A stretch of 64,000 nt of DNA from Patescibacteria group bacterium (GCA_022564195.1 JADFLW010000006.1:2474-66473), one strand, 5' to 3'. Positions 15,488 through 51,115 are shown, counted from the first letter of the stretch. The notes: a model not told the origin generated them from the letters alone. Numbers and translations: made by a program.

Positions 15488-15533
15488 GACGCTAGACGCT
15501 AGACGCTAGACGCTAGACGCTAGACGCTAGACG
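15488..15533. repeat. heptanucleotide microsatellite (GACGCTA) x 6.6
   Basis: Perfect tandem copies. It overlaps the last six codons (KRLASSV) and stop of the NUDIX gene. Confidence 0.9.
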
Positions 15534-25674: not shown

Positions 25675-26388
25675 TTATCGACCAAATCTCCGTTGTCTGC
25701 TTTGATATTCCGCAATAGCTTTATCAAACTCTTTCGGCGTAAAATCCGGCCAGTACGTGTCTGTAAAATACAATTCAGTGTACGCAATCTGCCACAACAT
25801 AAACCCTGAAAGCCGAAACTCCCCACCCGTCCGAATCAACAAATCCGGATCCGGCTGCCCCGCAGTATCCAAGAACTGAGCAAAGCTTTGCTCAGTTAAA
25901 TTTCGAATTTCGAATTTCGAATTTCGAATTTCTCCTGCGAGTGTCACAATAGCTCGCAGGAGCTCGTCCCTTCCTCCATAGCTCAAGGCAATATTCACCG
26001 TGATCGCGGAGTTATGTTTCGTCTTCTCAATCCACGCCTTGGTCTTTTCCTGAATGTCGTTGGGGAACATCGAAACATTACCAATAACGTTTATCTTCAC
26101 ATTCTTCCGATGAAAACTCTCAACCTTTTTCGATAAATTATCTCGAAAAATATTCAACAAAAACCCAACCTCCCGCTTCGTTCTCTTCCAATTCTCTGTG
26201 GAGAACGCCCAAAACGTAAGATAGCCAATCCCAAGCTCAATCGCCCGATCAACAATCGGCTCAATCCGCTCCTCACCCGCAAGATGCCCCTTCAAAGGGA
26301 AAAATCCTCGCTTTCTTGCCCATCTTCTGTTGCCATCCATGATGAGCGCCACATGCTGCGGAATGTTTGACGAATCTACGCGACCCAT
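25675..26388 (-). CDS. uppS: undecaprenyl diphosphate synthase (isoprenyl transferase) UppS
   Basis: HVALIMDGNRRWA...YLTFWAFSTENWKR...RTGGEFRLSGFMLWQIAYTELYFTD. Start at ATG 26388. Confidence 0.9.
   Translation of the reverse strand: MGRVDSSNIPQHVALIMDGNRRWARKRGFFPLKGHLAGEERIEPIVDRAIELGIGYLTFWAFSTENWKRTKREVGFLLNIFRDNLSKKVESFHRKNVKINVIGNVSMFPNDIQEKTKAWIEKTKHNSAITVNIALSYGGRDELLRAIVTLAGEIRNSKFEIRNLTEQSFAQFLDTAGQPDPDLLIRTGGEFRLSGFMLWQIAYTELYFTDTYWPDFTPKEFDKAIAEYQSRQRRFGR
25900..25932. repeat. heptanucleotide repeat (ATTTCGA) x 4.7 inside the uppS coding sequence, preceded by a perfect 20-bp palindrome (25876-25895)
   Basis: Encodes EIRNSKFEIRN in a variable loop of UppS. Palindrome ctgagcaaagctttgctcag. 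Confidence 0.9.
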
Positions 26389-32835: not shown

Positions 32836-32895
32836 ACACAAAACGCTAAACCCTCTACCCTATTGCCTGATTCTTGTGCTACTATTATTTTTGAA

Positions 32896-34617: not shown

Positions 34618-34633
34618 TCGTGAATCATGAATA

Positions 34634-35644
34634 ATGAATAAAAAATTATCAAAACTACTACTGGTACCAGCTCTAGTCATTGCCTCAGTGCTGCTGTTCC
34701 ATGCCCCAGCAGCACAAGCCCAAGACTTCAGCGTCTTTTACAACGCCTGCACCGTCGGTCCCATCTGCGACCTCTGTGAGCAGTACTACTCCCCCGGCGA
34801 CTATGTGTTGGACGATGTCATCAGTTTCCCCGCAGAAGAGGAAAAGATCATCCCCCATCCCTATTATGAGGAATACAAAGACTTCACTTGTAAAGCCGAC
34901 GAGTGCTTAGTCGGCGTCTCCGACACCACGTATTGTGTCTCACCGACTGACGATGAGATACCAGCAATACGCCTTTGTACTGCGATCACACTCCCCAATT
35001 GCAATCTCAACGAGTGTCAAGACAGTCCGTCCAGCTCTCCCTATTGCGATATCGGCGCCGTAAGATTCTGCGACTCCAGCATATACGCACTCGGAGGTTG
35101 GCATTTCTGCACAACGTCGGGCTGGGACCCCACCGCCGTCGGTGGGACGAGTGGCGACTGCATTGCCGAGCCACCCCACCCAATCATGGGTTGCGATAAC
35201 GGAACCGTGGGCGTACCAGGTTCCGGCAATTGGATTGACCTTCCATCAAGGCCGAATGAACAGGGCCGCTGTGAAGAAATGCTCGAGGAGATACGGGTCG
35301 CCTTCACCCCAGGCTATGTCAAAACCTACACGCCATATCTTTTTGATATCTGGCAAAACACCGTCAAGCACACCGCGGCCATCTTCACACTCTTCCGCAC
35401 CCAAATCGGCGCCGAGATCTTCGACTGGCCTGGGGAATCAACCATCGCCTACGACTTCACCAACGATCTTGCCGAAGCCGGCTTTCCACCGACGATCCGG
35501 CCCGGATGGGATGCTAAAATCTACTTCCGCTATTTGGGTTACATCCACTGCGCCAAGGAAAATCTCCTACAAAAGCTCTCCTCCAGACTTGCAGACACGC
35601 CATACGTCTACTACGACGCCCGCTGCGATGCAGAACTTTGGTGA
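34634..35644 (+). CDS. secreted Cys-rich hypothetical protein
   Basis: Signal peptide ...APAAQA, about 24 cysteines, no recognisable catalytic motif. Confidence 0.5.
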   Translation: MNKKLSKLLLVPALVIASVLLFHAPAAQAQDFSVFYNACTVGPICDLCEQYYSPGDYVLDDVISFPAEEEKIIPHPYYEEYKDFTCKADECLVGVSDTTYCVSPTDDEIPAIRLCTAITLPNCNLNECQDSPSSSPYCDIGAVRFCDSSIYALGGWHFCTTSGWDPTAVGGTSGDCIAEPPHPIMGCDNGTVGVPGSGNWIDLPSRPNEQGRCEEMLEEIRVAFTPGYVKTYTPYLFDIWQNTVKHTAAIFTLFRTQIGAEIFDWPGESTIAYDFTNDLAEAGFPPTIRPGWDAKIYFRYLGYIHCAKENLLQKLSSRLADTPYVYYDARCDAELW

Positions 35645-35654
35645 TACATCTCAA

Positions 35655-35984
35655 ATGTCAAAACGCAAAAGTCAAAACCACAACTCAAATGTAAAAACCG
35701 ATCTCAAAATTAGATCCTACCAATTCTCTCTGAGAATCATCAGGCTAGTAAGTAGGCTTCCAAGCACAAGAATTTTCTGGGTAATAGGAGACCAATTACT
35801 TAGAAACAGCACCAGCATAGGCGCAAATATCGTAGAAACAAAATCCTCAAGCTCCAAAAAAGAATTCATTAAGTTTTACGAAATATCCCTGAAGAGCACG
35901 AACGAAACAAAGTATTGGCTCTGCCTCCTTCGGGACTCTAATCTTGAAGGCATAGATCAAAAAACAGTAAAGGAAGCTCTATAG
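35655..35984 (+). CDS. four-helix-bundle protein (23S rRNA intervening-sequence protein family)
   Basis: YQFSLRIIRLVSRLP...RNSTSIGANIVE...YEISLKSTNETKYWLCLLRDSNL matches the IVS-protein pattern (SIPSNIAEG-like, LLAKRLGY-like). Only the 3' 109 codons of track ORF 35142-35984 are taken as real. Confidence 0.55.
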   Translation: MSKRKSQNHNSNVKTDLKIRSYQFSLRIIRLVSRLPSTRIFWVIGDQLLRNSTSIGANIVETKSSSSKKEFIKFYEISLKSTNETKYWLCLLRDSNLEGIDQKTVKEAL

Positions 35985-36104
35985 GAAGCGGTTGAGATCA
36001 ACAACATGTTAGGTTCTAGTCTGTTAACGATGAAAGGAAAAAGATAGTTCTCTGGATTTTAGTTGTAGTTTTGAGACTTGAGATTTGAGTTTTGACTTTT
36101 AATT

Positions 36105-37601
36105 ATGTTCTATTCTAAAATGATCTCAATGAGTCCTTTCCCGGCCCGCAAAAAGCTCCTCCTAACCATCGGGTTGATCTTTACCCTCCTTGTATTTGTT
36201 GGGGCAGTCAAAAAAGCCCATGCCCAACCTGCCTGGTTCATCCCCGTACCAGAAGAACATGCCGCTGCCCTCCAAGAGTGCCAAGCAGGCGATGTCGGTC
36301 TTGAATGTACGGTCCAGGCCATCGTCACCAGCATCGCCAATTCGTTCAACTACGGCCTCGGCGGAGATCCAACCGGAGGACCGACGCTCGGGAGACGCCC
36401 TGGGGCTATTCATTTTGCAAGCAACTTGCTTGGTACCCTCGTCGCCAACCCCCCAATCTCATCAGGAGACTACGTCCAGTATGTTGCCCAGCGCCTAAAC
36501 ATCGCCGAACCTGCCTACGCTCAGGCGGGCACAGGATTCAGAGCCCTCCAGCCGCTCATCCCTCTCTGGGCTGCTTTCCGAAACATCGCCTACTTGGCTT
36601 TCGTCGTCATCTTTATCTTGATAGGTTTCATGATCATGTTCAGGGCCCGCCTCGATCCCCAAACCGTGGTCAACGTCCAAAACTCTCTCCCGAAACTGGT
36701 GATCACCCTGCTTTTGATCACCTTCTCGTATGCCATTGCCGGCTTCTTGGTTGACTTGATCTACCTCGGCATCTTCGTCATCGTCTCCGTCCTTGCCTCC
36801 CAAGGCCTAATCGACAGTGCGGCAGCAGCACGCACTACCCTTATCGGAGAAAATCTCTTCACCTTCATCTTCAAAGGGGGAATTTTCCGAGCCGGAGACA
36901 CAGCCGGAGAAGCCATACGACTAATCATTGAAAAGGCAATTGACAACGACGCGTTAGGAGCAGTCGCGGGCTTCCTCGGAGACCCGTTCGTGCAGGTCAT
37001 CATGACCATCGCGCTCTTGTTTTCCGTGTTCAGGCTCTTCTTCCAACTCCTAATCGCCTATGTCCAAATCGTCATCCTCACCATCTTCGCCCCCATCATG
37101 ATCCTCTTCAACGCCCTACCAGGCTCTCAAAGCTTCGGCAACTGGCTGAGAAACTTTTTATCCAATATCCTCCTGTTTCCGGCCGTTGCGGCGCTCATCC
37201 TCGTTGCCGCCATCCTCATGGGCCCCTGCGAGTCAACTGGGCCAGATGATCCCTGCTCCCTCGGCCGCGAGAAATGGGGAATCTCGGATTCGCTCATTGA
37301 GCGTTACCCAGATCAGGGCTGGCTGCCGCCATTCATCGGCTTCACGACGGACACGAAAGCCGTCATCGCCCTCATCGGCTACGGCTTCATCCTCTTCGCT
37401 CCCCAAATGGTCTCTGCCCTGCAAAAGGCGCTCAAGGCCCAGCCGATCCCAGCCGCCGGCGTCTTCGCCCCCCTCGCCGCCGGCGCCAGAGTAGCCACGG
37501 CACCGATTAGAGCACCACTCCAAGCGATAGGCGCCGGAGCAAGAGTATTCGTCGGCCAAAAGATAGAGTCTCTCGCAGGCGAAACAAGAAAAAGAGGGTA
37601 A
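36105..37601 (+). CDS. polytopic membrane protein, candidate VirB6/TrbL-like T4SS component
   Basis: Signal/anchor plus at least 6 TM helices with a large loop. Location inside the T4SS-like locus; no enzymatic motifs. Confidence 0.4.
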   Translation: MFYSKMISMSPFPARKKLLLTIGLIFTLLVFVGAVKKAHAQPAWFIPVPEEHAAALQECQAGDVGLECTVQAIVTSIANSFNYGLGGDPTGGPTLGRRPGAIHFASNLLGTLVANPPISSGDYVQYVAQRLNIAEPAYAQAGTGFRALQPLIPLWAAFRNIAYLAFVVIFILIGFMIMFRARLDPQTVVNVQNSLPKLVITLLLITFSYAIAGFLVDLIYLGIFVIVSVLASQGLIDSAAAARTTLIGENLFTFIFKGGIFRAGDTAGEAIRLIIEKAIDNDALGAVAGFLGDPFVQVIMTIALLFSVFRLFFQLLIAYVQIVILTIFAPIMILFNALPGSQSFGNWLRNFLSNILLFPAVAALILVAAILMGPCESTGPDDPCSLGREKWGISDSLIERYPDQGWLPPFIGFTTDTKAVIALIGYGFILFAPQMVSALQKALKAQPIPAAGVFAPLAAGARVATAPIRAPLQAIGAGARVFVGQKIESLAGETRKRG

Positions 37602-37611
37602 AACAGCTTCT

Positions 37612-40600
37612 CTACTCCTGCTGAAGATATGGACCCAACTCGTCAAGAAACGGTTTCATGATGAGCGTCCAAACCCCGATTGGTAAGGCAATGGGCCCGT
37701 ACTCTACAGCCAGCGAGGCAGCAACATGTCCTGCTCTTGCCCGATGCTTTCTCAGAAGCTTTCCCGCCTTCTCATTTCCAATAATCGGTCGCAGTTGATT
37801 AACGAACTGGAAAATCTCCAGCTTTGTCATACTCAACGCTTTGCCACCGAACTTGAGTTGCGCTTTTGAAGACATCGTCCAAGGTTTCCATATATTAATC
37901 GGCCCACCCCAATCCGCAATAAAACCACCGGGAAACCAATTCGCCCACCACTTAGCTTGATAAAGATTCTTCAATATCGTATCGGCTTTTGCGGCAATCA
38001 ATTTCTCCCTTTCAAATCCTGCCAGATGTTGGGCAGCTCCATAAAGCTCGGTAAACTGCTTGAACAGTTCTCCCTGGGAAGCCACAACCCGATCCTCAGG
38101 AGCAAATAATCCATTATCAATGTGTGTCATGACTCGGTCTGTGTTTTGTGCAAACTCAGCATCTCCGCCGATCCTTCTCGACACACCCCTCGGCCCTATC
38201 TTCCACCATTCAGCCTCCTCGTGTACCAAATCCTCCATGAAAGGCAAAAAGCTAAAATCAACTCCAGCCATTCTCTCCGCCCCTGTCTTAGCCCCGCCTT
38301 TACTCTTAGCTCCAAGGTGCGTCAGCCGCTCAACAACCTTTATCTCTTGATCAGAAAAACTCAATCCCAACTCATCCTCTCTCACTAGCTCAAGGACGCT
38401 CTTCTTGTAGTGCTTCTCACGATCTTCTGGTGATAAACCCTCTTTTTGATACCCATCGCTCTTGACATAATCCCGAAGTGCTTTTTCTTCATACACAGTC
38501 AGCTTCGAATGGAGCTCCTTCCATTGTTCAAAAACTTTTTCTTCCCAACCTTCTTTTTCCGTGTCAACAACGAATTGTTCAGCCAGCATCCAGGTGAAAC
38601 TCGCCTCCGCGCCCACCTGAAGCATGAGTTCCTTTTTCCTCTGCTCCATTCGTTTGTCGATTTCTCTATCCTTATCGCGCTTCTTGTCCTTAACGAACTT
38701 CGATTCTATGTCGGTTTTGACATCCTTCTCAATCACTTCCCAAATCTCTTCATCCTCAATCTTTTCCTTAACTTTCTTCTTGACGTAATCACACAAACCA
38801 TCCACATCTTGAACCACCGCGCCTCCCTCTCTGCCTTTTAACCTACTTCTAAGATCAAAGTAATCGTCTCTGCTTGCGTCTTTCCCTAGGGCTTCGAGTG
38901 AAAGCGTTGGAAAATATCTTGAGATGACTGTCGGCATCCGCTTCCCAACTTTCTCCCAAATATCTGCTTTTAGTGAATCTTCTATCGTGTCTTTATCCCA
39001 CTTCTTAATCCCTAACCTTTTCATGATTTTCATCTTCTCGCTCTTATCCTTACGACCCCTCCTCATCAACCTCTTCGCCTCATCTCCCATGTCATAGAGC
39101 TGCACACCCAATGCCACCCCCCGACTCCGTTGTTTCTCAGTTGCAACAACCGATCTCCAGTGAGACCCACTCAAAGGCCCCCCATACTTGACGTAATTCT
39201 CAACATTAATCCCCCACTCATCAAGTGGATCGCCTGGTATTTTTTCATGCACACCACTTTGAACAAACTGATTGAGTCTATCCAGCCAAGGCTTTCCCCC
39301 TTCTCTTCCTCGTCCCCAAGTCTCAAATCGCTCAGGACCTAAGCGCAAAAGTCGAAGCGGAACCTTATCAAATGGATAGCTCATATAGAGCTCGCCCATC
39401 TTCTGCGGGGCAAGTTGGGTCTGCGCTACATGTTCGGCGCTGCGCAGTAGAACATTGGACATCTTCATCGCCAATGCCGCCACCCGACGCGCCTCTTTTT
39501 CTCTTTCAGCTCCTTCACCTCCCAATTCCAACACTCCCTTGTCAGACATCGCCAGCAAGCCCTCAGCAACAATCTGCTCAATTTCCGGAGGCCTATAACC
39601 CCCATGAGAACTCGGTATAAGAAAGTCAATAGGGATCCGCCCTTTATATTGAGGATCCATACGAACCTGAGCCAAAATCCGCTCAACTATTCCGAGCGCC
39701 GGGGACAGTGTAGGCTCCATGATCGACATGGTATCCAAGTCCTCAGAAAGCAAAAGCTTTCCAGAAACTCCTTTGAGTTCTTCAGGATCTCCGCCCCTGA
39801 TGAGCTCAGAATTCAAAAAACTGAAAACCCGTCGCGTCCATAGCAGGTTTTCGTATCTCCGCTTCTCATCTACTCCCGTCGGGCCTGCATCACGAAGTTT
39901 TTTCATTAATGTCGAAAACAGAATATGTCCCCAACTCTCCATCCGAAAGCCTTCGCGCGGGTCGCTCTCGGCATCTCCGATAATTTCTTCAAACAGGGGT
40001 TTAATGAAATGCGTGCGTAATCTTTCTCGAAAATCCTCCATGCTCTCTTTATCGATCGGCTTGCTCTGTAATTGTTGAATTTCAGAGACCAGCTGATCCC
40101 TCATAGAGCTAGAGGCAAACTGAACCTCTTTCCCTTGGATATTGAAAACAACATTTTCTTCGTCCAGAGTGCTTTGATCCACCAATTGCTGTAACCCTTC
40201 TTCATCAAGAGTCAGCACCTGAAAAACACCCGCCTCTTCAACATCCAATATGTGGTAGTAAATCTCTTTCGTTTCCAATCCGTACATCCTTCCGAGATAA
40301 TCAGCAATCTCCCTCTCATTTTCCGTGATGTGAGAAAGTGAAAATTCTATCCCACGCAACTCTTTATTCCCCTGTTCCCACTCTTCCATAAGCTGCTTAA
40401 CCAGCTTCTCACTACCGGCGTCATCTGCCTCATCGAGGTTATTCGAAATCTGCTGCAGTTTATCTTCTGCCTTCTGCCGCAGGGCTTCAAACCTTTTTAC
40501 TTGTCTGTCCATGCTCTCACGCTCGTCTCCTATATCTCCCGCAGGAGAAGCCCCTGCTAGTCCTTCCAACATCGCTGTCTTTTTAGCCGCTATTTCCTCA

Positions 40601-41172
40601 GGGCTCTTGCCAGCCTCTTCAAGTTTTTTCACCCGCTCATCCACCTCCGCCTCATGCACAGCTCGTTCAAGTCGTGTTTCTTCTTCTTTAGTAAAATCAA
40701 GCCCTGTAAACATCCACTTGAGTATTGCCTCTGGAGTATCATGGCCGGCTTCCTTAGCCGCCTTGATCAACTCCGCAAACTCCCCTTCTTCGTCTTCGAA
40801 GATCTCTTTAATCTGCTTCCAGAGATACTTTAGAAGCGCGAGAAGCAACTCAAGGATAGAGGCTTTTTCCTCCTCATCAACTTTCTTTCCCTGCTCCTTC
40901 TTCTTGAGTAATTCAAGAAGCTTTTTGAGGTTTGTATCTGCTATTTTAAGCTCCCCGGGCTTCAATTGAGCCTGCTCCAGTGCCGCCTGAAACAGTTCCC
41001 CCCGACTTTTTGCTCCCTTATCAACATCCTTTGCATCCTTTTTCGCTTCATAAACCGTCTTTTTCTCCTTCGGTCGCTCTGCCTTTTTTTTCTCAGCCCG
41101 ACGCTCACTGGAAGGTTTTTTTGCCTTCTCTTCTTTCGGTTTTTTGGTTGGTTCTCCCTCGTGTTCATTCAT
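37612..41172 (-). CDS. 1186-aa hypothetical protein, K/E-rich N-terminus, extensive coiled coils, no recognisable catalytic motifs
   Basis: Long uninterrupted ORF on the opposite strand inside the T4SS-like locus. No Walker or relaxase motifs seen. Confidence 0.6.
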   Translation of the reverse strand: MNEHEGEPTKKPKEEKAKKPSSERRAEKKKAERPKEKKTVYEAKKDAKDVDKGAKSRGELFQAALEQAQLKPGELKIADTNLKKLLELLKKKEQGKKVDEEEKASILELLLALLKYLWKQIKEIFEDEEGEFAELIKAAKEAGHDTPEAILKWMFTGLDFTKEEETRLERAVHEAEVDERVKKLEEAGKSPEEIAAKKTAMLEGLAGASPAGDIGDERESMDRQVKRFEALRQKAEDKLQQISNNLDEADDAGSEKLVKQLMEEWEQGNKELRGIEFSLSHITENEREIADYLGRMYGLETKEIYYHILDVEEAGVFQVLTLDEEGLQQLVDQSTLDEENVVFNIQGKEVQFASSSMRDQLVSEIQQLQSKPIDKESMEDFRERLRTHFIKPLFEEIIGDAESDPREGFRMESWGHILFSTLMKKLRDAGPTGVDEKRRYENLLWTRRVFSFLNSELIRGGDPEELKGVSGKLLLSEDLDTMSIMEPTLSPALGIVERILAQVRMDPQYKGRIPIDFLIPSSHGGYRPPEIEQIVAEGLLAMSDKGVLELGGEGAEREKEARRVAALAMKMSNVLLRSAEHVAQTQLAPQKMGELYMSYPFDKVPLRLLRLGPERFETWGRGREGGKPWLDRLNQFVQSGVHEKIPGDPLDEWGINVENYVKYGGPLSGSHWRSVVATEKQRSRGVALGVQLYDMGDEAKRLMRRGRKDKSEKMKIMKRLGIKKWDKDTIEDSLKADIWEKVGKRMPTVISRYFPTLSLEALGKDASRDDYFDLRSRLKGREGGAVVQDVDGLCDYVKKKVKEKIEDEEIWEVIEKDVKTDIESKFVKDKKRDKDREIDKRMEQRKKELMLQVGAEASFTWMLAEQFVVDTEKEGWEEKVFEQWKELHSKLTVYEEKALRDYVKSDGYQKEGLSPEDREKHYKKSVLELVREDELGLSFSDQEIKVVERLTHLGAKSKGGAKTGAERMAGVDFSFLPFMEDLVHEEAEWWKIGPRGVSRRIGGDAEFAQNTDRVMTHIDNGLFAPEDRVVASQGELFKQFTELYGAAQHLAGFEREKLIAAKADTILKNLYQAKWWANWFPGGFIADWGGPINIWKPWTMSSKAQLKFGGKALSMTKLEIFQFVNQLRPIIGNEKAGKLLRKHRARAGHVAASLAVEYGPIALPIGVWTLIMKPFLDELGPYLQQE

Positions 41173-41837: not shown

Positions 41838-44678
41838 ATGCCCGACGAGCCGCAAGCACCAGACGTTCCTGAAACACCTCAGCCAGAACAACCCACGCCC
41901 CCCGATGGTGGAGAAGAACTACCTCCCGAAAAGCCCATCGACACCTACGAAGGCCTCCGTGACGACCTCAAAACCCAACTGGAAGGCCAGTATCAGGAAA
42001 AGATGCAGGGGTTTCTCCATCCAGAACCCAACCCGCAGCTTGCTTCTAGCGCCGCCAACATCGTTTCCCAACACGCCATCAGATACCTCCCTGCAGAAGG
42101 GGAGGTCTCTCCAGAACACCTCTCCCAGGCAATCACTGCCGCCCAAACCGATCTTGCCGACAGAAGGCTCTGGTACCAAGCCATTCTCCCAAAAGAGCCC
42201 ATACGAATCGATATCGCCAAATCCATCGCTTCAAGATACACTCCTGAAAAGCTAGTCGGCCGCAGGCTCACAAAGACAAGCAATGCCTTAAGAACCGCGG
42301 CGGATGACTACAGAAACAGGGTTGAACAAACTCGCGTGCAACTTCCGAAGCGCGAGGATTTGCTTCCCGCAATCCAATCAGAGCTCCAGAAATCAGGAAT
42401 CACTGATAAAAAACTCTACACGAAGCAGGCGGTAAAAATAGCCAGTGATCTGGATAAATGGACCTTCAGCTACCAGGCCGCCCCGCCCCAAGAAGTCATT
42501 CAAACCGCCGTTCAAAGACGTGCCGGAAAACACGTTGAGGATACCCAGGGCCTTGCAACGCGGCTGTCGGAAAACACCACGGTCTCCAAGCACTACGAGG
42601 CGGGCGCCCAGCATCACCATCTCGTCGCTCACGGGCTCACCAAGACAATCAACAAAGCCGCCTCCAGTCGTCTCGTCCGAGGAGCAAGGAAGCTTACAAA
42701 GGCAGCCGACATCATCAGACGCCCCCTCACCTACGCCGGAAGGGCAGCCACCTTCCCGGTGCGGTTTGCCGTCCGAAAAGTCACCCGCCCAATCGGAAGA
42801 GTGGTCAAAAGAGGAGTCCGACGAGTAGCCATCGGAGCTGCCCGATTGGCAGCCAAGGTCCTGGTGAAAGTCGGCCTCGGCGGACTGGTCAAAAACATCG
42901 AGCGAGTCGCCCTTGCCAGCACCGGCGTGGGCATTCCCCTCCTCATCGCCCAAGAAGCCGCCTTGTTTGGAATAGGACAACTTTTTAAAGCCAAAAAATC
43001 GCTTCAGGAGAGCTGGCAAAAGGCATATCAGTCGCGCAATGTCGGCGAAGCGCTGATCAACAACATCGGTGCCTCGATCGACACAGTCGGTGCCGGCATA
43101 GGCGGGATCGTTGGTGGCGTTGCCGGAACAGGCGTGGGAGCCATAGGTGGTGCCATCATCGGCTCGCTACTGGGACCGGTCGGCACCATCATCGGAGGAG
43201 TGCTCGGTGGAGTAGCTGGTGGCCTCTTTGGCGCAGGTGTTGGTGCCAACGCCGGAGCAAGACTGCGCAAAAACCTCAAGCGCATGATTGCCATTCGGCT
43301 CTTCCTCAAACTCCTTTGGGCCAAGATAGCAGGGCTCATAAAGGCAGCTGCCTTCACACTTGGTGGTGCGCTTACTGGTGCAGTCATCGGCTTCGCAGTG
43401 GGAGGGCCCGTTGGTGCCCTTGTGGGAGGTATTATTGGTGGAACTGCCGGATATCTGCTGCCCAAAGCAGCCACCAGCGCCAGACAGCTCGTCTACATCG
43501 CCAGGCACTACGCTTTTATCGAAGGCCCAATCGCCCAAGTCTTCAAAGGAATCGGCAATCTCCTTGCAAAAATCCCTTCAGGCATCGCGAGAGCTTTCAA
43601 CGCCGCCACCGGCTGGATCGGAGGAACCACCACCTCTGCAACCGCAACGGCCGAAGCGGTTGCCACCGGAATCACCACCGCTGGCCCCGGAACCGCACTC
43701 GCCCTCACGCCAGTTGCTACCATCGCCACGGTGGGGCTATTTGCCTTCATCACCTACTCGGTTTTGATCACCGCCTTCTTCGTCCCCCCAACCGAAGTCA
43801 CCCCGTTCTTTGAAATTCCATCGCGCTTCATCAAAATCACCAAAACCGCCTGCGCCACCTCAGCGGGTGGGGAGACCTTCTGTGACGTCAATGGCCAGCT
43901 TGTCCTTGAAAATCCCACCGCCGAAGGCCCCTATGACATCGTCTATCAGATCATAGTTGAGGCCGTGGATCAGACCTTAACCAACGTTGCCATTGAAGAT
44001 ACCTATACGGCATTCGGCGAAAACGATCCGACCCCGCCAGCTCCACTATCATGGAACGGCACAATCACCATCGGCTCCGGAGACCCTTGGAGTGAGACCG
44101 TCAATCTCACCATCCCCAGATCCAGCAGCTGGGATGACTCTCTCCTCATCAACACCGTCACGGTCACAGCCTTCCTCACAGGCACGACAGAGCCCATCGT
44201 CAATTCCAATTCGGTAAACATCATCTTTGGAAACCCTCCCTTCTGCCCGCCCAGCGGCGATCCGTTAGCCACCCCCTACGGTTGGATTCGGGGCTTCACT
44301 CCTGGCTTCCACACCGGAGTTGACGTAAAAGGCTCGCCCGCAATCGGCGCCACCATCTCCTCCACCTTCCCCTGCCGAGCCATCGTCCGCCACGCCGGCC
44401 TCGACACCTACGACAGGGGGCAGTTTGGCTTCTACGTTGCGCTCCAATCCGGCCCCTGGTTCGCCTTCTATTCCCACATGAACGCTACGCCCTATGTCAA
44501 CGAAGGTGATATCGTCGGCGGTGGCACTGCGCTCGGCCCCCAAGGGTCGTCGGGAAACTCCTCAGGTCCACACCTACACTACGAAATCCGAGAAGGGACA
44601 AGCGTCAATCCAAAAGTAAACTGGCAGCCGACGTTGGCCAAAGACCCCTGTAATTTCGGCGTCACCGCCTGCCCATGA
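41838..44678 (+). CDS. 946-aa protein with C-terminal M23 (LytM) metallopeptidase domain and central glycine-zipper membrane region
   Basis: M23 motifs HTGVDV ... HAG ... AFYSHMNA ... GSSGNSSGPHLHYEI. Central run of GxxxG repeats (GAGIGGIVGGVAGTGVGAIGGAIIGSLLG...). Proline-rich N-terminus. Confidence 0.75.
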   Translation: MPDEPQAPDVPETPQPEQPTPPDGGEELPPEKPIDTYEGLRDDLKTQLEGQYQEKMQGFLHPEPNPQLASSAANIVSQHAIRYLPAEGEVSPEHLSQAITAAQTDLADRRLWYQAILPKEPIRIDIAKSIASRYTPEKLVGRRLTKTSNALRTAADDYRNRVEQTRVQLPKREDLLPAIQSELQKSGITDKKLYTKQAVKIASDLDKWTFSYQAAPPQEVIQTAVQRRAGKHVEDTQGLATRLSENTTVSKHYEAGAQHHHLVAHGLTKTINKAASSRLVRGARKLTKAADIIRRPLTYAGRAATFPVRFAVRKVTRPIGRVVKRGVRRVAIGAARLAAKVLVKVGLGGLVKNIERVALASTGVGIPLLIAQEAALFGIGQLFKAKKSLQESWQKAYQSRNVGEALINNIGASIDTVGAGIGGIVGGVAGTGVGAIGGAIIGSLLGPVGTIIGGVLGGVAGGLFGAGVGANAGARLRKNLKRMIAIRLFLKLLWAKIAGLIKAAAFTLGGALTGAVIGFAVGGPVGALVGGIIGGTAGYLLPKAATSARQLVYIARHYAFIEGPIAQVFKGIGNLLAKIPSGIARAFNAATGWIGGTTTSATATAEAVATGITTAGPGTALALTPVATIATVGLFAFITYSVLITAFFVPPTEVTPFFEIPSRFIKITKTACATSAGGETFCDVNGQLVLENPTAEGPYDIVYQIIVEAVDQTLTNVAIEDTYTAFGENDPTPPAPLSWNGTITIGSGDPWSETVNLTIPRSSSWDDSLLINTVTVTAFLTGTTEPIVNSNSVNIIFGNPPFCPPSGDPLATPYGWIRGFTPGFHTGVDVKGSPAIGATISSTFPCRAIVRHAGLDTYDRGQFGFYVALQSGPWFAFYSHMNATPYVNEGDIVGGGTALGPQGSSGNSSGPHLHYEIREGTSVNPKVNWQPTLAKDPCNFGVTACP

Positions 44679-44703: not shown

Positions 44704-45783
44704 ATGATGGATGTGCCCGGCCGACTCACAATCAAAAGGTTTCTCACGGGAAAAACGCTCCTGTTTCTCTTGCTTGCAACCATCATCACCCTCGTTATCG
44801 GAGTACGTTTGGTTAAACGGCAACAGGAGCAACGCCCTGGAATCAAACCTACATTCGGAGAGCTGCTCGCCCCCCTGCCAGCCTATAAATCTCCTCACCC
44901 GAACCCGCAGACGTCCAAGATAGAGCTCCCCCCAGCGCTCAATCTCCCTGAAACGGCCGTGGTCTATCGTCAAGGGATCCGTTCGATAGAAGATCAGCGG
45001 GCGCGCCAAATTGGACAAGCGTTGAGGATGGGCGTCCAGCCCCAAATATTCGGAAACACCATGGTCTTCCAACAAGAAGCGAAGTTTTTAAGCCTCAACC
45101 TCAAAACCGGAGATGTCTCCTACTCCGAACCGCTTCCCGAGTACCTCAAGACCCTCAGTCAACCGGCGCTGGAAGATTATGCGCTTTTATTAATCAAACA
45201 ATTGTTCCCGGACTCGACATTTTGGGAAAATCCGGTGATGCAAACCCAGCACCTCGCCACACGGGAACCAGAGCCCAGCCCCCACGGAGACCTCCAACTT
45301 GTCCCTCCTGAAAGTGCCCAACTCGCCATCGTCGAGGCTTTCCCAACAATCAATGGCACAAGAATCGTCGGACCAAAAGATCCCTTCGGTCAACGCGGAA
45401 TAGTGACCGCAAAATTCCTCAAAAACGACGGCCTCATCTCGCTCAACGGCGCTGTTGTCGCCATAGATATCTCTAACACCGGTACCTACCCCTTGAAATC
45501 CCTCCCTCTCGCACAACAAGAGATCGGCGCCGGAAGAGCCCTGTTTACCACCGCCATTCCAGCAGGGACATCCTACGGACAAGTCGAGCCCGGAGCAGAC
45601 ATTACTCCAACCAGCGCAGAATACACCGAAGCAGAGGTGGTCTACTACTACAACCCTGATCCCAACACATTCCTGCAGCCCATGTACCTGTTTACCGGCA
45701 AAACAACCCTCACCGATGGCCGACCAGCAACCATCATCGCCATCCTTCCCGCCATTGACCCCCAATTCCTGAAACAACCATAA
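44704..45783 (+). CDS. N-terminally anchored hypothetical protein (possible VirB8/VirB10-like bitopic component, speculative)
   Basis: Single N-terminal TM helix and large extracytoplasmic domain. Placement between the M23 protein and the PrgI-like gene. Confidence 0.4.
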   Translation: MMDVPGRLTIKRFLTGKTLLFLLLATIITLVIGVRLVKRQQEQRPGIKPTFGELLAPLPAYKSPHPNPQTSKIELPPALNLPETAVVYRQGIRSIEDQRARQIGQALRMGVQPQIFGNTMVFQQEAKFLSLNLKTGDVSYSEPLPEYLKTLSQPALEDYALLLIKQLFPDSTFWENPVMQTQHLATREPEPSPHGDLQLVPPESAQLAIVEAFPTINGTRIVGPKDPFGQRGIVTAKFLKNDGLISLNGAVVAIDISNTGTYPLKSLPLAQQEIGAGRALFTTAIPAGTSYGQVEPGADITPTSAEYTEAEVVYYYNPDPNTFLQPMYLFTGKTTLTDGRPATIIAILPAIDPQFLKQP

Positions 45784-45927: not shown

Positions 45928-47019
45928 ATGGAACAACACCCCGTCCCCCAACAAATCTCAGCCTACCACTTCCGCTTGGTCGGCGACATGACCATTAAGC
46001 AGTTCATCGAGCTGTCAGCCGGCGTCGTCGTCGGCTGGATCATCTACTCACTCCCCATCCATCCCATCATCCGCTGGCCATTGGTCATCTCTTCGGTCTT
46101 TGCCGGAGTCACCTTCGCCTTCCTTCCCCTTGAAGAGCGCCCCCTAGACCGCTGGCTCCTAGCCTTCATTAAAGCTGTCTACTCACCCACGCAATACATC
46201 TGGAAGAAATCCGTCATCATTCCGGAATTCTTCGAAGAGATAAAACTGAGAAAAGTGGCAGCCAAGGAAGAACGGGTAGGGGTTGATCGCAAGAAGCTGG
46301 AAGAGTATCTCGAAACCCTGCCCGCCCCAGGGCCTGAAACCTCAATCGATAAAAAGGAGAACCAGTTTATCTCCGACATCATGAAGCTCTACATAGAGGT
46401 CCAACCAAAGGTTGTCACCCCAGTCAAGCCAAAAAAGGCCATCCTTGAGGAGGAACGGATTCCAAAAGTCGCGGTCAGGAAACTCAAGACCCCCCCGCTT
46501 GATCCACGCGCCATCATGCGAGGCGAAATTATTATGCCGAAACGCCCAAAGCCAAGAACCATCCAAGTCCCTGAAATTGAACCGACTCCAGTGGAAAAGC
46601 TGTCCCCGTCACCCGAAACCCCGCCTCCACAGGAGCAAGCGCCCACCGAAACTGTCGCGTCTTCCGGCATCGATCCAACAGGAGCAATAAAGATTCCTTC
46701 CATGAAACAGGTTGCCGAAGCAACCATGGCTCCTGGACTACCGATGCCAGCCCCGCCAACCGAACCAAACGTCGTCGCCGGGATGGTCGTGGACGACAAG
46801 GGCAATATCGTCGAAAACGCAATCGTGACAATTAAAGACCATGAAGGCAATGTCGCTCGCGCCCAAAAAACCAACAAAATCGGCCAATTCTTCATTGCCA
46901 CACCTTTAGAAAACGGGGACTACGAAATCGAAGTTGAGAAAGAAGCCTTAAGCTTTGATATAATTAAAATAAAGCTCGAAGGAAAGCTCGTTCTACCCAT
47001 CGAAATCCGAGCCAAATAA
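45928..47019 (+). CDS. PrgI/VirB3-like membrane protein fused to a C-terminal carboxypeptidase-regulatory-like beta-sandwich domain
   Basis: N-terminus MTIKQFIELSAGVVVGWIIYSL...WPLVISSVFAGVTFAFLPLEERPLDRWLLAFIK resembles PrgI family/VirB3. C-terminus GMVVDDKGNIVENAIVTIKDHEGN...GDYEIEVEKE. Confidence 0.4.
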   Translation: MEQHPVPQQISAYHFRLVGDMTIKQFIELSAGVVVGWIIYSLPIHPIIRWPLVISSVFAGVTFAFLPLEERPLDRWLLAFIKAVYSPTQYIWKKSVIIPEFFEEIKLRKVAAKEERVGVDRKKLEEYLETLPAPGPETSIDKKENQFISDIMKLYIEVQPKVVTPVKPKKAILEEERIPKVAVRKLKTPPLDPRAIMRGEIIMPKRPKPRTIQVPEIEPTPVEKLSPSPETPPPQEQAPTETVASSGIDPTGAIKIPSMKQVAEATMAPGLPMPAPPTEPNVVAGMVVDDKGNIVENAIVTIKDHEGNVARAQKTNKIGQFFIATPLENGDYEIEVEKEALSFDIIKIKLEGKLVLPIEIRAK

Positions 47020-47023
47020 CCAA

Positions 47024-48013
47024 ATGCCCACCCCAATCCAAGCCACCACCCAGGAACACCTGGACATCGAGGACATCGTCGAAAATATCATCCTCTTAAA
47101 AGATGGCTCTGCCGCAATGGTCCTCACCACGACAGCCGTCAATTTCGGACTACTTTCCGAGTCTGAGCAAGACGCCACTATCTACGCCTACGCTGCCCTC
47201 TTAAATTCGCTAACCTTTCCAATCCAAATCCTCATCCGCAGCCACCGCAAGGATATTTCAGGATACGAAAAGCTTCTTGCGGAACAAGAAGTGCGCGCAA
47301 TACAGCCCCAAAACAAAGAGCGAATCAGAAAATATAGAGAATTCATCCAAGAAACGGTCAGGGAAAGGAATGTGTTGGATAAAAAGTTTTACATCACCAT
47401 CCCATTCTCCGTCATGGAATTAGGGGTCACCAAATCGGCAACCGCCCTTGTGAAGGGCCGTCGCCGTGGCCTCCCCTTCCCCAAAGACTACATCATAAAG
47501 CGCGCCAAAATGGCTCTGGATCCAAAGTCCGATCATCTGGTGCACCAGCTCGCTCGCTTGGGCCTGAAGGCCAGACAGCTCACCACCAAAGAACTCATTC
47601 AACTCATGTTTGAGATCTACAACCCCGATAGTGCTCAAGGACAAATTCTCGCATCTCCAAAGGAATACGAAACCCCGCTGGTCAAAGCAGCAGTCGCCTT
47701 CCAGGAGAACCCACAAATCACAGGACCAGAGGAAGGGCCACCAACAACCCCACCTCCCCCAGTTGATCCGCCGCCAGCTGCGACTCCCTCCACTGCGCAA
47801 CCTCAACTGCAACCAAAACCAAACGAAACGCAAACGACCGAATCAACTGACCAAGAAGCCCAAGCGGCAATAAACGCCGCAGTGGGCGCCCAAGCACCAG
47901 AAGCTCAACCGAGCCCACCAGAAGCTCAACCGAGCCCACCAGAAGCTCAACCGAGCCCACCAGAAGCTCAACCGAGCCCACCAGAAGCTCAACCGAAATC
48001 GGAGAAAAGGTAA
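47024..48013 (+). CDS. T4SS protein resembling the N-terminal domain of Gram-positive-type VirB4 (PrgJ-like); ends in a PEAQPSP x4 repeat
   Basis: DIVENIILLKDGSAAMVLTTTAVNFGLLSESEQDATIYAYAALLNSLTFPIQILIRS (recalled similarity, not searched). Stop TAA overlaps the ATG of the VirB4 ATPase ORF (TAATG). Confidence 0.45.
   Translation: MPTPIQATTQEHLDIEDIVENIILLKDGSAAMVLTTTAVNFGLLSESEQDATIYAYAALLNSLTFPIQILIRSHRKDISGYEKLLAEQEVRAIQPQNKERIRKYREFIQETVRERNVLDKKFYITIPFSVMELGVTKSATALVKGRRRGLPFPKDYIIKRAKMALDPKSDHLVHQLARLGLKARQLTTKELIQLMFEIYNPDSAQGQILASPKEYETPLVKAAVAFQENPQITGPEEGPPTTPPPPVDPPPAATPSTAQPQLQPKPNETQTTESTDQEAQAAINAAVGAQAPEAQPSPPEAQPSPPEAQPSPPEAQPSPPEAQPKSEKR
47897..47996. repeat. 21-bp tandem repeat (ccagaagctcaaccgagccca) x 4.8, in frame (PEAQPSP)
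   Basis: Perfect copies at the 3' end of ORF 47024-48013. Confidence 0.9.
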
Positions 48014-49962
48014 TGCCGCCACTCATCGATACCATCAAAAGCAAGTTAGCCGGAGGAAAACCACAACCGACTTCATCCACCGCTCAGCCTGGTCCGGCGC
48101 AACAGCCCTCACCCGCAGCGGCCGAAGAAAAAGCGCCAACAAAGGCTGACGGGCCGGCCGAGAAACTTGGAGCCGGGATGGTCTCAATCCAAGACATCAT
48201 CGCCCCAGAATCAATTGATGTCGACTTCAATCATTTAAAAATTGGCAACGCCTACTTCCGCACCCTCTTTGTGGCAGGCTACCCACGATACGTCAGCGCC
48301 AACTGGCTCGCCCCCCTCATCAACTTCGAACACTCACTTGAAGTTTCAATGTTCATCTACCCGGTTGAGGGCCGAGAAGTGCTCGATGAGTTACGGCGCA
48401 AAATAGGGGAAATGGAAGCAGAAGTCGACTCCGACTTCAAGCGCGGCCACATTGCAAGCGTTGATACCGAAATTAAACTTGCAGACGCCAAATCCCTCCA
48501 GCAAGAGCTTGCAAAAGGCGCTGAGCGCTTCTTCCAGTTTGGCCTCTACATCACCATAACGGCCGACTCACTGGATGAGCTAAACTCAACAACCAAGAAA
48601 GTACAGTCCCTCTTAGGGTCGCTCCTCATCGTCTCCAAAGCCTCCACCCTCCAAATGGAGGACGGACTCAAAGCAACGCTCCCCCTAGGACAAGACCACC
48701 TCATGATCACCCGCAACATGGACACCACCTCATTGGCAACAACATTTCCCTTTGCCTCATCGGAGTTAAGTGCCAACGAAGGAATCATGTACGGCATCAA
48801 CGAACACAACGACTCATTAATCATCTTTGACCGCTTCACCCTTGAGAACGCCAACATGGTGATCTTCGGTAAATCAGGATCCGGAAAGAGCTTCTTCGAA
48901 AAACTAGAAATCATGCGCTCCTTGATGTTCGGAACCGAAGTGATCGTCATCGACCCAGAAAAAGAGTACCAACGCATGTGCGAGGCCCTGCAAGGAACCT
49001 ACATCGACTTTCACTTCAATGCCGAGGCAAAAATCAATCCCTTTGACCTCTCAATGATCTACGAAGAAGGGGAAAATGAGCTGGGCTTAAAGATTCTCTC
49101 GCTCCATGGCCTGTTAAAAATCATGCTCGGAGAAGTAAGTCCCAACGAGGAGGCAATTCTCGATCGAGCCCTCATCGCCACCTATAAAGCGAGGGGCATC
49201 ACCCCAAACCCAGACACGCAAAAAAACGAACCGCCCCTCATGGAGGATCTGTACAAAACGCTCATTGGGATGGAAGAAGAGGTGTCAAAGGGCTTGTCCA
49301 ACCGGCTAGAAAAGTACGTCAAGGGCTCCCTGAGAAGCTTTTTCGATCAGCAGTCAAACGTGGACATCAAAAATCCGTTCACGGTCTTCTCCCTCAAAGA
49401 AGTGGAAGATGAAACACGCCCAATTGTCATGTACATGGTGCTCGATTACATCTGGACAAAGGTGAAACGCGACATGAAAAAACGACTTGTCGTCGTCGAC
49501 GAGGCGTGGTACCTCATGAAAAACGAAGACTCTGCAACTTTCCTCTACTCCATCGCCAAGCGCGCCCGAAAATATTTCATGGGACTAACCACCATCACAC
49601 AAGACGTCGAAGACTTCTTAAATACCGACTACGGTCACGCCATCGTCACCAACTCCTCAATCCAAGTTCTTTTCAAACAATCATCAGCCGCAATCGAGCG
49701 TCTTGCGGAGGCGTTCTACCTCTCGGAAGGAGAAAAACACCTGCTGCTCGCAGCAGACGTTGGGGAAGGGCTATTCTTTGCCGGACAAAACCACGTCGCA
49801 ATGCGCGTCGTCGCCTCCTCAGAAGAGCACCGCCTCATCACCACAAAACCAGAAGAAATCCTTGATATTGAGAGAGAAAAGAAAAAGCGAGAACAACGAC
49901 GAGGGCCTAACGCTCCACAGCCCGACCAAGCGCAACAAACAAAATCTCACCCATCAGCCTAG
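48013..49962 (+). CDS. virB4: VirB4/TrbE-family type IV secretion ATPase
   Basis: IGNAYFRTLFVAGYPRYVSANWL N-domain. Walker A GKSGSGKS, Walker B RLVVVDEAWYL. C-terminal VirB4 motifs. Confidence 0.9.
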   Translation: MPPLIDTIKSKLAGGKPQPTSSTAQPGPAQQPSPAAAEEKAPTKADGPAEKLGAGMVSIQDIIAPESIDVDFNHLKIGNAYFRTLFVAGYPRYVSANWLAPLINFEHSLEVSMFIYPVEGREVLDELRRKIGEMEAEVDSDFKRGHIASVDTEIKLADAKSLQQELAKGAERFFQFGLYITITADSLDELNSTTKKVQSLLGSLLIVSKASTLQMEDGLKATLPLGQDHLMITRNMDTTSLATTFPFASSELSANEGIMYGINEHNDSLIIFDRFTLENANMVIFGKSGSGKSFFEKLEIMRSLMFGTEVIVIDPEKEYQRMCEALQGTYIDFHFNAEAKINPFDLSMIYEEGENELGLKILSLHGLLKIMLGEVSPNEEAILDRALIATYKARGITPNPDTQKNEPPLMEDLYKTLIGMEEEVSKGLSNRLEKYVKGSLRSFFDQQSNVDIKNPFTVFSLKEVEDETRPIVMYMVLDYIWTKVKRDMKKRLVVVDEAWYLMKNEDSATFLYSIAKRARKYFMGLTTITQDVEDFLNTDYGHAIVTNSSIQVLFKQSSAAIERLAEAFYLSEGEKHLLLAADVGEGLFFAGQNHVAMRVVASSEEHRLITTKPEEILDIEREKKKREQRRGPNAPQPDQAQQTKSHPSA

Positions 49963-49966
49963 CGCT

Positions 49967-51115
49967 CTATTTTTGAACGCGCACGGGCATGATGACGTGC
50001 AAAAACTCTTCACTCTTTCCGAGTAGCCGAAAAACGCCCGGATCCAAGCTTCCATTCAAAACAAATTGAAGCTTTTCTGAAGGAAAAATCGAAAAAAGCT
50101 CCAAAAGGTACCGGCTATTAAAGGCGGTCTCCCCTCCCGGGCCCTTGAGGCGAACCTCGACCGCACTCTCGCTTGCACCATAAGACGGGGCATTTGCAGA
50201 AATCGTCAGCCCCCGCTTAGCAAGCTTCCAGTGAACAATGTTAGCGCTGTCACGAGCAAAAATGCTGGCTGTGCGAACCGCCCGCACCAAAGGCTCCAGC
50301 TCAATCTCTGCCACAGATTCCTCCTTACGAGGTATAACTTGAGAAAAATTAGGAAACGCCCCATCAATAAGCCTTGTTGTCACCTCTCCATCCCCAATCG
50401 AAAAGACAACCAGATTCTGATCAGAGACAAGACCAATCCTCACCTGAGAAGCTCCCAGCTCATCAGCCAATCGATCAACATCAACGAGCGCCCGCGCTGG
50501 AACGATAAGTCCCTCCCCAATGACAGCCTCAACTGCCTTCCTCCACTTCCCCGCTCCCTTTCCAGAAACACCCGCCACCCTCACTAAACTCAAACGATAC
50601 CCATCCGTCGCAACCAACTGTAAATTCCCGTTCTGCTGTTTCCAGAGAACCCCAGAAAGAACGGGTCGCGTCTCGTCCGTTGAGGCAGCAATGGTGACCA
50701 TCTCAACCGCCCGATGCAACTGTTCATAAGAAAGGTCAAACTCCCGCTTACCTGACAGTTTACCGAGTGACGGATATTCAGAGGCAGCAATCCCCATAAG
50801 ACTCGCTGTGTTTCCAGCGCACGTTACAGTCAAAGATTCTCCATCAAGAGCCATCTCAACGGTCGAGGGAGGAAAAGAAGAAACAAGCTCTCCAAAAACC
50901 TTTGCTGGAACAGAAATCGCTCCCCCTTTCTCTATCTTGGCTCCAACCCAAAGCCGCATCCCCAAATTCAAATCAGTTGCCGTCAATTGCAATCTCCCCT
51001 CACGAGCTTCAAGCAACACATTGGAAAGAATAGGCAGTGATGGTTTAGACGGAACTACCCTAGAAACAGAGGCAAGTGATTTAGAAAGCTTTTCTTGCAA
51101 AACTGAGAGTTTCAT
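49967..51115 (-). CDS. dnaN: DNA polymerase III beta subunit (sliding clamp)
   Basis: Three-domain clamp pattern: LQLTATDLNLGMRL ... LQLVATDGYRLSLVRV ... VIMPVRV. Confidence 0.95.
   Translation of the reverse strand: MKLSVLQEKLSKSLASVSRVVPSKPSLPILSNVLLEAREGRLQLTATDLNLGMRLWVGAKIEKGGAISVPAKVFGELVSSFPPSTVEMALDGESLTVTCAGNTASLMGIAASEYPSLGKLSGKREFDLSYEQLHRAVEMVTIAASTDETRPVLSGVLWKQQNGNLQLVATDGYRLSLVRVAGVSGKGAGKWRKAVEAVIGEGLIVPARALVDVDRLADELGASQVRIGLVSDQNLVVFSIGDGEVTTRLIDGAFPNFSQVIPRKEESVAEIELEPLVRAVRTASIFARDSANIVHWKLAKRGLTISANAPSYGASESAVEVRLKGPGGETAFNSRYLLELFSIFPSEKLQFVLNGSLDPGVFRLLGKSEEFLHVIMPVRVQK

Follow-up and report, generated by a model that had tools for sequence, protein, structure and literature searches.

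Among the described type IV secretion systems (T4SSs), the closest to the one considered here are those of pSK41 and pGO1, conjugative plasmids of Staphylococcus aureus (MPF-FATA, pGO1 subclass), and those encoded on the chromosomes of Patescibacteria. A 2025 survey of Patescibacteria counted more homologues of TrsD (2,272, of which 1,664 adjoin virB4) than of any other T4SS component and described TrsD as a remote homologue of the N-terminal portion of VirB4, with T4SS genes lying near dnaA and dnaN in Microgenomatia and Paceibacteria (Quinonero-Coronel et al. 2025, PMC12102498). The TrsD homologue of Southlakia epibionticum ML1 is listed as essential (Wang et al. 2023, as cited in PMC12102498). 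According to a 2025 review, epibiotic growth depends on these systems, whose substrates are unknown, and the N-terminal domains of VirB4 in the solved R388 machine contact VirB3 and VirB8, thereby anchoring the ATPase at the membrane (PMC12857230). The main text of Guglielmini et al. 2014 makes no mention of TrsD (PMC4027160). Here, we analysed a 64,000-nucleotide (nt) stretch of DNA from a Patescibacteria group bacterium (GCA_022564195.1, JADFLW010000006.1:2474-66473; hereafter the window), in which two adjoining open reading frames (ORFs), ORF-A and ORF-B, very probably encode a genuine two-polypeptide VirB4-type T4SS ATPase.

A sequence-only reading of the window had proposed a VirB4 split at a repeat-bearing linker, either as a genuine two-polypeptide protein or as a repeat-mediated, phase-variable or degenerating gene. 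The elements on which it drew (two ORFs, a TAATG junction, a perfect 21-bp repeat, several VirB4 motifs and Walker A and B) are all present in the sequence, with ILLKDGS (residues 23-29), NFGLLSESEQ (residues 40-49) and FPIQI (residues 65-69) in ORF-A, and IGNAYFRTLFVAGYPRY at residues 77-93 of ORF-B (coordinates in Table 1). A near-identical strain that was assembled independently (L001; ENA ERZ24945681) has the same TAATG junction and is 99.58% identical to the window over 13 kb, its sole indel over that distance being 42 bp, exactly two repeat units. The exact 329-amino-acid (aa) ORF-A protein is deposited at NCBI as MCH7951631.1 (hypothetical protein, Patescibacteria group bacterium), and the closest genome locus is that of Candidatus Chisholmbacteria RIFCSPLOWO2_01_FULL_49_14 (85% identity).

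The two ORFs occupied complementary parts of VirB4 in comparisons with complete family members. On the NCBIfam CD1110 VirB4 model (752 positions), ORF-A matched positions 2-121 and ORF-B positions 185-734, and on the VirB4_plasma (mycoplasma VirB4) model (894 positions) they matched 107-281 and 293-892, respectively. ORF-B scored above the cutoff of NF045971 conju_CD1110 (1.3e-122; 410.6 bits, cutoff 325) and had Pfam matches to P-loop_TraG (5.4e-29) and, weakly, to CagE_TrbE_VirB (residues 159-224); the complete VirB4 N-terminal domain was absent from its polypeptide, the first part of the CD1110 model being matched by ORF-A instead. A tblastn search of plasmids recovered ORF-A-like sequence in Carboxydocella, Clostridium botulinum pCLJ and Miltoncostaea, and BLASTP against the 754-aa single-chain VirB4 of Carboxydocella pCCELLA01 placed ORF-A residues 10-203 on residues 12-179 (8e-17) and ORF-B residues 61-619 on residues 186-750 (3e-79), an adjacent, non-overlapping placement that marks the two ORFs as neighbouring pieces of one VirB4. 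Likewise, a natural 787-aa fusion from Patescibacteria (P0288) was matched at residues 6-199 by ORF-A (57% identity) and at residues 213-776 by ORF-B (67% identity).

Profile comparisons extended these matches to systems in which the two parts are separate. Alignment with hhalign matched the ORF-A family to pSK41 TrsD (probability 96.2%, E 2.7e-9, 181 columns, TrsD residues 32-219 of 227) and to the 'TraC family protein' of pCLJ (probability 98.6%), such that ORF-A has both full-length profile similarity to pSK41 TrsD and the position directly upstream of a VirB4 gene that together define TrsD/TraD homologues in the broad sense; precomputed hits place 119 of the 120 homologues listed in PF26593 (TraC-like), including P0001, which is ORF-A save for repeat number. 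Residue 61 of ORF-B aligned with residue 36 of the pSK41 VirB4 homologue, and the break point is therefore common to the window pair and pSK41 TrsD/TrsE. The suggestion that VirB4 had been split at the repeat was accordingly abandoned, the PEAQPSP array being a recent, lineage-specific addition to an existing disordered tail.

Structural models gave a similar picture. In the AlphaFold2 (AF2) model of ORF-A, the predicted local distance difference test (pLDDT) score was ~62-95 per 10-residue block across residues 11-200 and ~45-64 in the tail, and the 14 best structural matches in the PDB were all TrwK/VirB4 chains of R388 (probability up to 1.00). The AF2 model of a fused relative (P0391) aligned full-length with TrwK (template modelling (TM) score 0.71 in both normalisations, E 2e-26), and the break falls in this model in a loop between helix 193-204, the last of the first module, and strand 224-226. 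Judged from these alignments and models, the ORF-A core (residues ~1-225) is the counterpart of residues 1 to ~185 of single-chain monoderm VirB4s, a TrsD-like or 'TraC-like' protein, and ORF-B is predicted to supply the rest of the N-terminal domain together with the RecA-like ATPase domain.

Several observations weigh against this assignment and against an obligatory partnership. The fold matches of ORF-A reached TM scores of only 0.24-0.31, partly since the model includes the 100-residue disordered tail; ORF-A scored 22.3 bits against NCBIfam NF041427 TrsD/TraD (cutoff 200), with a match confined to profile positions 14-69 of 201; and Pfam, scanned locally, gave only a sub-threshold TraC_F_IV match, all matches of ORF-A in the curated libraries (Pfam and NCBIfam) being sub-threshold. 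The precomputed PF26593 hit is marked 'faint' for P0001 and is unmarked for the 80%-identical P0013, and the local Pfam-A scan of ORF-A did not return PF26593. A sequence search of the PDB with the ORF-A profile gave no relevant match (top, Hsp83, E 0.19). Because ORF-A falls below curated cutoffs, we base its family assignment on the profile-profile and fold comparisons. In addition, the TrsD-like gene is not adjacent to virB4 in several genomes (L010, L017 and L047; in L017, the nearest virB4-like sequence is 5.5 kb off and dnaN directly follows the TrsD-like gene), so separate expression is possible and coupling is not obligatory.

To place the split in a wider context, we compared the junction and its flanking genes across relatives. 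Searches found 2,015 homologues of the ORF-A core, all 120 of those listed being 225-380 aa long, and an exhaustive profile search returned 3,041 cluster representatives, the 12 longest listed of which comprised one fusion (P0288) and 11 proteins with long low-complexity tails; listed ORF-B homologues were 596-722 aa long, with a common start point. Among species-representative loci with both genes (n = 76), 74 were split and 2 fused, with junctions that included ATGA overlaps (27), TAATG or TGATG overlaps (4) and gaps of 1-50 nt (21), and none was fused among ~66 loci with both genes in a second, more distant clade. Spacers in related loci ranged from 1 to 560 nt, and the ORFs were never in one continuous frame there. 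Both cores are under strong purifying selection, with ratios of nonsynonymous to synonymous substitution rates (dN/dS), relative to a Chisholmbacteria relative (L006), of 0.041 for ORF-A and 0.033 for ORF-B; identity to this relative was 84% for the ORF-A core, 38% for the ORF-A tail and 54% for the ORF-B leader. In two close relatives (L002 and L006), the genes are split by spacers of 14 nt and 19 nt, respectively, with no repeat, and the split is therefore older than, and independent of, the repeat. Comparative sequence evidence thus indicates that the split is ancient, selected and the normal architecture across Patescibacteria. Of the alternatives in the sequence-only reading, it is the genuine two-polypeptide VirB4 that is borne out, given homology of ORF-A to the N-terminal module of monoderm VirB4s and of ORF-B to the remainder, in a conserved and selectively constrained pair. 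That reading had also named an outcome that would have overturned it, namely that ORF-A belongs to an unrelated protein family always encoded separately; the family is indeed conserved and almost always separately encoded, but it is related to VirB4.

Table 1. Coordinates of the two VirB4 ORFs, their sub-regions and the neighbouring genes, counted from the first nucleotide of the window.
Feature	Position	Strand	Description
ORF-A	47024-48013	+	329 aa; TrsD-like or 'TraC-like' subunit, N-terminal module of VirB4
ORF-B	48013-49962	+	649 aa; VirB4 without first N-terminal module
ORF-A conserved core, residues 1-225	47024-47698	+	Region used for family alignments and dN/dS and distinguished by AF2 pLDDT
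ORF-A tail, residues 226-329	47699-48010	+	Pro/Ala/Gln-rich, predicted disordered, fast-evolving
Short helix motif QEAQAAINAAVG in ORF-A tail	47852-47887	+	Pattern Q-x-x-[IL]-[DN]-x-x-[LVIA]
Perfect tandem repeat, 21 bp x 4.9 (PEAQPSP)	47895-47996	+	Tandem Repeats Finder; in frame, length-variable
GGAG Shine-Dalgarno-like site	48001-48004	+	8 nt upstream of ORF-B ATG, within last ORF-A codons; read from sequence
TAATG stop/start overlap	48011-48015	+	TAA 48011-48013, ATG 48013-48015, one base in common
ORF-B leader, residues 1-56	48013-48180	+	N-terminal motif MPPLIDTIK, then Pro/Ala-rich linker
Rest of VirB4 N-terminal domain, ORF-B residues 63-275	48199-48837	+	Begins IAPESIDVDF
Walker A, GKSGSGKS	48868-48891	+	ORF-B residues 286-293
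Walker B, VVVDEAW	49489-49509	+	ORF-B residues 493-499
946-aa protein	41838-44678	+	Pro-rich N-terminus, Gly-zipper region, C-terminal M23 peptidase; Peptidase_M23 5.8e-12, Gly-zipper_Omp; syntenic in L001 and L002
359-aa conserved ORF	44704-45783	+	Same position in L001 and L002; tblastn matches in L006, L013 and L027
PrgI (VirB3-like) with C-terminal CarboxypepD_reg	45928-47019	+	PrgI 3.5e-07, 31.1 bits (cutoff 27); CarboxypepD_reg 8.6e-07
dnaN	49967-51115	-	Convergent with ORF-B, 4 nt apart; DNA_pol3_beta domains on identical L001 gene
dnaA	51362-52741	-	Bac_DnaA and DnaA_N on identical L001 gene; marks origin-proximal location

Other explanations for the same pair were weighed against these data. 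A recent break of a single-chain virB4, by a frameshift or stop in a repeat-containing linker, would leave a degenerating pseudogene, and the existence of fused relatives and the ORF-B frame, which is open from 47851 through the repeat such that a single 1-nt indel would fuse the frames, are in its favour. Such decay is nevertheless exceedingly improbable, given that both halves have dN/dS values of 0.04, that many different junction sequences accompany a split seen in 74 of 76 loci and, in the second clade, in every one of the ~66 complete loci, that L006 and L002 are split without any repeat, that ORF-B has its own conserved N-terminal motif and GGAG site, and that the chain breaks where it does in pSK41 TrsD/TrsE; the degenerating gene of the sequence-only reading is set aside on the same grounds, and nothing suggests that the indel route to a fusion is used. 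An assembly or sequencing artefact would be a natural concern for a metagenome assembly with a junction beside a tandem repeat, but the identical junction in the independent L001 assembly, the deposition of the exact ORF-A protein at NCBI and the prevalence of the split form across hundreds of genomes make this origin almost inconceivable. We also consider it very improbable that VirB4 is naturally short here and that ORF-A, encoded upstream, is an accessory protein unrelated to it: the ORF-A family is conserved and separately encoded, and ORF-A has neither a match above the curated Pfam-A and NCBIfam cutoffs nor a PDB sequence match, but it aligns with the N-termini of single-chain VirB4s (to 8e-17), complements ORF-B on two NCBIfam VirB4 models, has fold matches to TrwK/VirB4 only, and is the counterpart of the first module in natural fusions that are predicted to adopt a complete VirB4 fold.

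Two further alternatives concern the junction itself. A fused full-length VirB4 could additionally be produced by programmed ribosomal frameshifting or read-through, as ORF-B is read in the -1 frame with respect to ORF-A, and this frame stays open over the 162 nt that precede the ORF-B ATG; however, ORF-A contains no X_XXY_YYZ heptamer, 47851-48012 is free of homopolymer runs, a +1 slip into the wrong frame is all that the A-run at GAG-AAA-AGG would permit, and related loci, with their 1-560-nt spacers and no continuous frame, show no conserved frameshift signal, such that we give this route very little credence. Alternatively, the 21-bp repeat could act as a phase-variation switch for the ATPase or for the coupling of the two ORFs, in line with copy numbers that vary among near-identical strains (1.9, 2.9 and 4.9). 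Against such a switch, which we likewise regard as most unlikely, the length of the repeat unit is divisible by three, the frame, stop, GGAG and ATG are the same in all alleles, 14 nt separate the array from the stop codon, homopolymer tracts of at least 5 bases and slippery heptamers are absent, and relatives lack the repeat, its effect being only to change tail length in 7-aa steps. The reading that best accommodates these observations is a two-polypeptide VirB4 with an in-frame, length-variable repeat in the disordered tail of ORF-A.

The repeat array itself is the strongest in the window (Tandem Repeats Finder period 21, 4.9 copies, 100% matches, score 204) and encodes four PEAQPSP units followed by PEAQP, in a tail that comprises 29 Pro, 15 Ala and 14 Gln among its 104 residues; it sits downstream of both the ORF-A core and the tail helix motif. 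Repeat number among strain variants, a check proposed with the sequence-only reading, was found to differ in three public assemblies, with alleles of 1.9, 2.9 and 4.9 copies (308, 315 and 329 aa) that are identical save for whole PEAQPSP units (21- and 42-bp differences), although the differences come from short-read assemblies and may partly reflect repeat collapse. With a 21-bp unit and an intact stop, GGAG and ATG, the polymorphism alters tail length only and switches no frame. Neither a frame shift nor a change in promoter spacing, by which contingency loci are recognized, was found, the array being internal to the coding sequence, and the earlier proposal of a repeat-mediated, phase-variable gene thus gives way to whole-unit, in-frame alleles inside the ORF-A tail, upstream of an unchanged junction. 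Elsewhere in the window are two perfect 7-bp tandem repeats, GACGCTA x 6.6 (15488-15533) and AATTTCG x 4.9 (25899-25932), the unit of which is not a multiple of three and, unlike the 21-bp array, could shift the frame if coding.

Tail length was hypervariable: relatives in the first clade have tails of 7-195 residues, and those in the second reach ~360. A helix is predicted over the tail motif of ORF-A (residues 276-287), and the motif pattern was found in 82 of the 150 tails of at least 50 aa, compared with 5.1 expected from shuffled tails; it recurs in otherwise unalignable tails, typically ~28 residues from the C-terminus, and C-terminal LPPIAEI-type (33 of 267) or PFVVEEL-type (20 of 267) sequences mark the tails of other clades. 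Split-type VirB4s, for their part, begin with a conserved M-x-LPF[LF]KK-like start (here MPPLIDTIK, window 48013-48039), followed by a variable linker of 25-70 residues and a conserved GMVS[IV]QD[IV]IAP. We considered whether the split site had drifted, such that the LPPIAEI end of ORF-A homologues would be the MPPLIDTIK start of ORF-B with the stop codon moved across it; this was ruled out, because in 80 second-clade loci the LPPIAEI-type end coexists with ORF-B's own M-x-LPF[LF]KK start. A tentative and rather doubtful idea is that the tail may serve as a length-tunable tether with conserved short binding motifs (the helix motif here, the LPPIAEI-type or PFVVEEL-type ends in other Patescibacteria), recruiting a partner such as the ATPase domain, a coupling protein or a substrate. 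If so, the PEAQPSP polymorphism would alter the reach of the tether between strains, and the splitting of VirB4 would have freed a new C-terminus for such an appendage.

Natural fusions delimit the segments that the VirB4 fold can do without. Single-chain TrsD-VirB4 proteins of 783-897 aa were observed in an Amesbacteria-like subclade of Patescibacteria (P0288, P0389-P0411 and others; for example, L057:5986-8349) and account for ~45 of the 120 listed matches to P0288. These fusions have the same gene neighbourhood as the window and differ from its pair in that a linker of only 13-98 residues joins the two parts, the long tail and most of the leader being missing, and the shortest lack the ORF-B leader entirely; the fold therefore needs neither the long tail nor most of the leader. 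In a crude neighbour-joining tree of 190 ORF-B-type cores, fused forms fell into five groups interleaved with split forms, implying at least five state changes, although this tree, in which only 22 fused sequences passed the motif filter, is too crude to count fusion events. One further locus, in Candidatus Amesbacteria GW2011_GWA1_47_20 (LCOA01000014.1; L062:5248-10002), has an uninterrupted ORF of 1,584 aa that joins PrgI, CarboxypepD_reg, the TrsD-like module and VirB4, with a LAGLIDADG intein inserted right after the Walker A sequence GSGKS; no VirB3-VirB4 fusions are reported to have been found in a published Patescibacteria dataset (PMC12102498). Intein and LAGLIDADG domains (PF14890 and PF14528) were also observed in several patescibacterial VirB4s of 1,158-1,215 aa (P0426, P0427, P0430, P0436, P0437, P0478, P0480, P0489 and P0505).

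We propose that translation of ORF-B is most likely coupled to that of ORF-A by the TAATG overlap and the GGAG site 8 nt upstream, which would match the amounts of the two products. These would then reassemble non-covalently into a VirB4-like protomer that docks on the PrgI-like protein, with the ORF-A module in the place that in TrwK contacts VirB3; such a position fits with the PrgI/VirB3-like gene immediately upstream. In this model, the ORF-A tail and ORF-B leader are disordered, rapidly evolving appendages, and the 21-bp repeat has no on/off effect.

The pair ends an operon-like run of five genes (M23 hydrolase, 359-aa ORF, PrgI/VirB3-like gene, ORF-A and ORF-B; Table 1), in which the stop of the PrgI-like gene lies 4 nt before the start of ORF-A. 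The 946-aa protein that opens the run may be the cell-wall hydrolase of the cluster or one of its channel components, and the 359-aa ORF had no Pfam or NCBIfam match. Neither a relaxase nor a coupling protein was detected among 25 large window ORFs scanned with Pfam, and four large ORFs nearby had no family match. Upstream of the T4SS genes (window 32863-41172) are four large ORFs of 584, 336 and 498 aa (plus strand) and 1,186 aa (minus strand), which had no Pfam match and may encode lineage-specific surface or T4SS-associated proteins. DnaN is present in the locus of most relatives. The host chromosome is Chisholmbacteria-like (Microgenomates, Patescibacteria). Many clearly patescibacterial contigs that represent species in GTDB (for example, L007, L011 and L013) bear titles such as 'uncultured Gammaproteobacteria bacterium', 'Pseudomonadales' or 'Bathyarchaeia archaeon', which look like placeholder or mislabelled taxonomy in third-party annotation (TPA) assemblies. 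Across the Microgenomates-type loci (L006-L085), tblastn recovered a PrgI-like gene in 70 of 76, whereas a published hidden Markov model (HMM) survey found few VirB3 homologues beside virB4 in Microgenomatia, with only 22.6% of them associated with virB4 (PMC12102498); the difference suggests that VirB3 was under-detected in that survey.

Together, these results suggest that this gene pair, for all its resemblance to a broken or phase-variable VirB4, has the architecture that is normal and selected for this T4SS ATPase in Patescibacteria, one held in common with staphylococcal and clostridial plasmids, and that ORF-A, labelled 'hypothetical protein' by annotation pipelines, should be annotated as a VirB4 N-terminal subunit (TrsD-like). 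On pSK41, a 135-aa hypothetical ORF (trsC position), TrsD (227 aa) and a 672-aa VirB4 homologue (trsE position, annotated only as DUF87 in the record used) follow one another in the same way; pSK41 differs in being a conjugative plasmid that encodes both a relaxase and a VirD4-like coupling protein, in a TrsD that lacks a low-complexity tail, and in a 14-nt gap, instead of an overlap, between the two genes. C. botulinum pCLJ has PrgI, a 257-aa 'TraC family protein' and a 620-aa ATPase in the same order, the latter two ORFs overlapping by 11 nt, and the actinobacterium Miltoncostaea oceani has PrgI, a 337-aa protein and a DUF87 protein; both of these versions reside on a plasmid or megaplasmid, and the tail is short or absent in pCLJ. 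Single-chain monoderm VirB4s (the CD1110 family and Carboxydocella) have the same domain order, ORF-A and ORF-B together covering positions 2-734 of 752, and the diderm VirB4 TrwK of R388 (PDB 7O41, 7O43, 8RTB and 8RTD) superposes with the model of the fused relative (TM 0.71); relative to single-chain VirB4, the window version has a break ~200 residues in, with a disordered extension at each new end.

A split VirB4 is already known, being published, represented by a Pfam family (PF26593) and named 'TraC family protein' by the Prokaryotic Genome Annotation Pipeline (PGAP). Our additions are descriptive, comprising the tail motifs, the repeat-length alleles, the fused subclade and one PrgI-TrsD-VirB4 fusion with an intein; the disordered tails, tail motifs, repeat polymorphism and fused subclade are not mentioned in PMC12102498. 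Nevertheless, the motifs, the alleles, the fusions (which mark dispensable segments) and the triple fusion could aid structural work on a machine that is essential in epibiotic Patescibacteria. With a TrsD-like gene directly upstream of virB4, a PrgI/VirB3-like gene beside it, dnaN and dnaA adjacent and a patescibacterial host, the window locus is an instance of the chromosomal TrsD and VirB4 system of Patescibacteria (PMC12102498), from which it differs in nothing essential.

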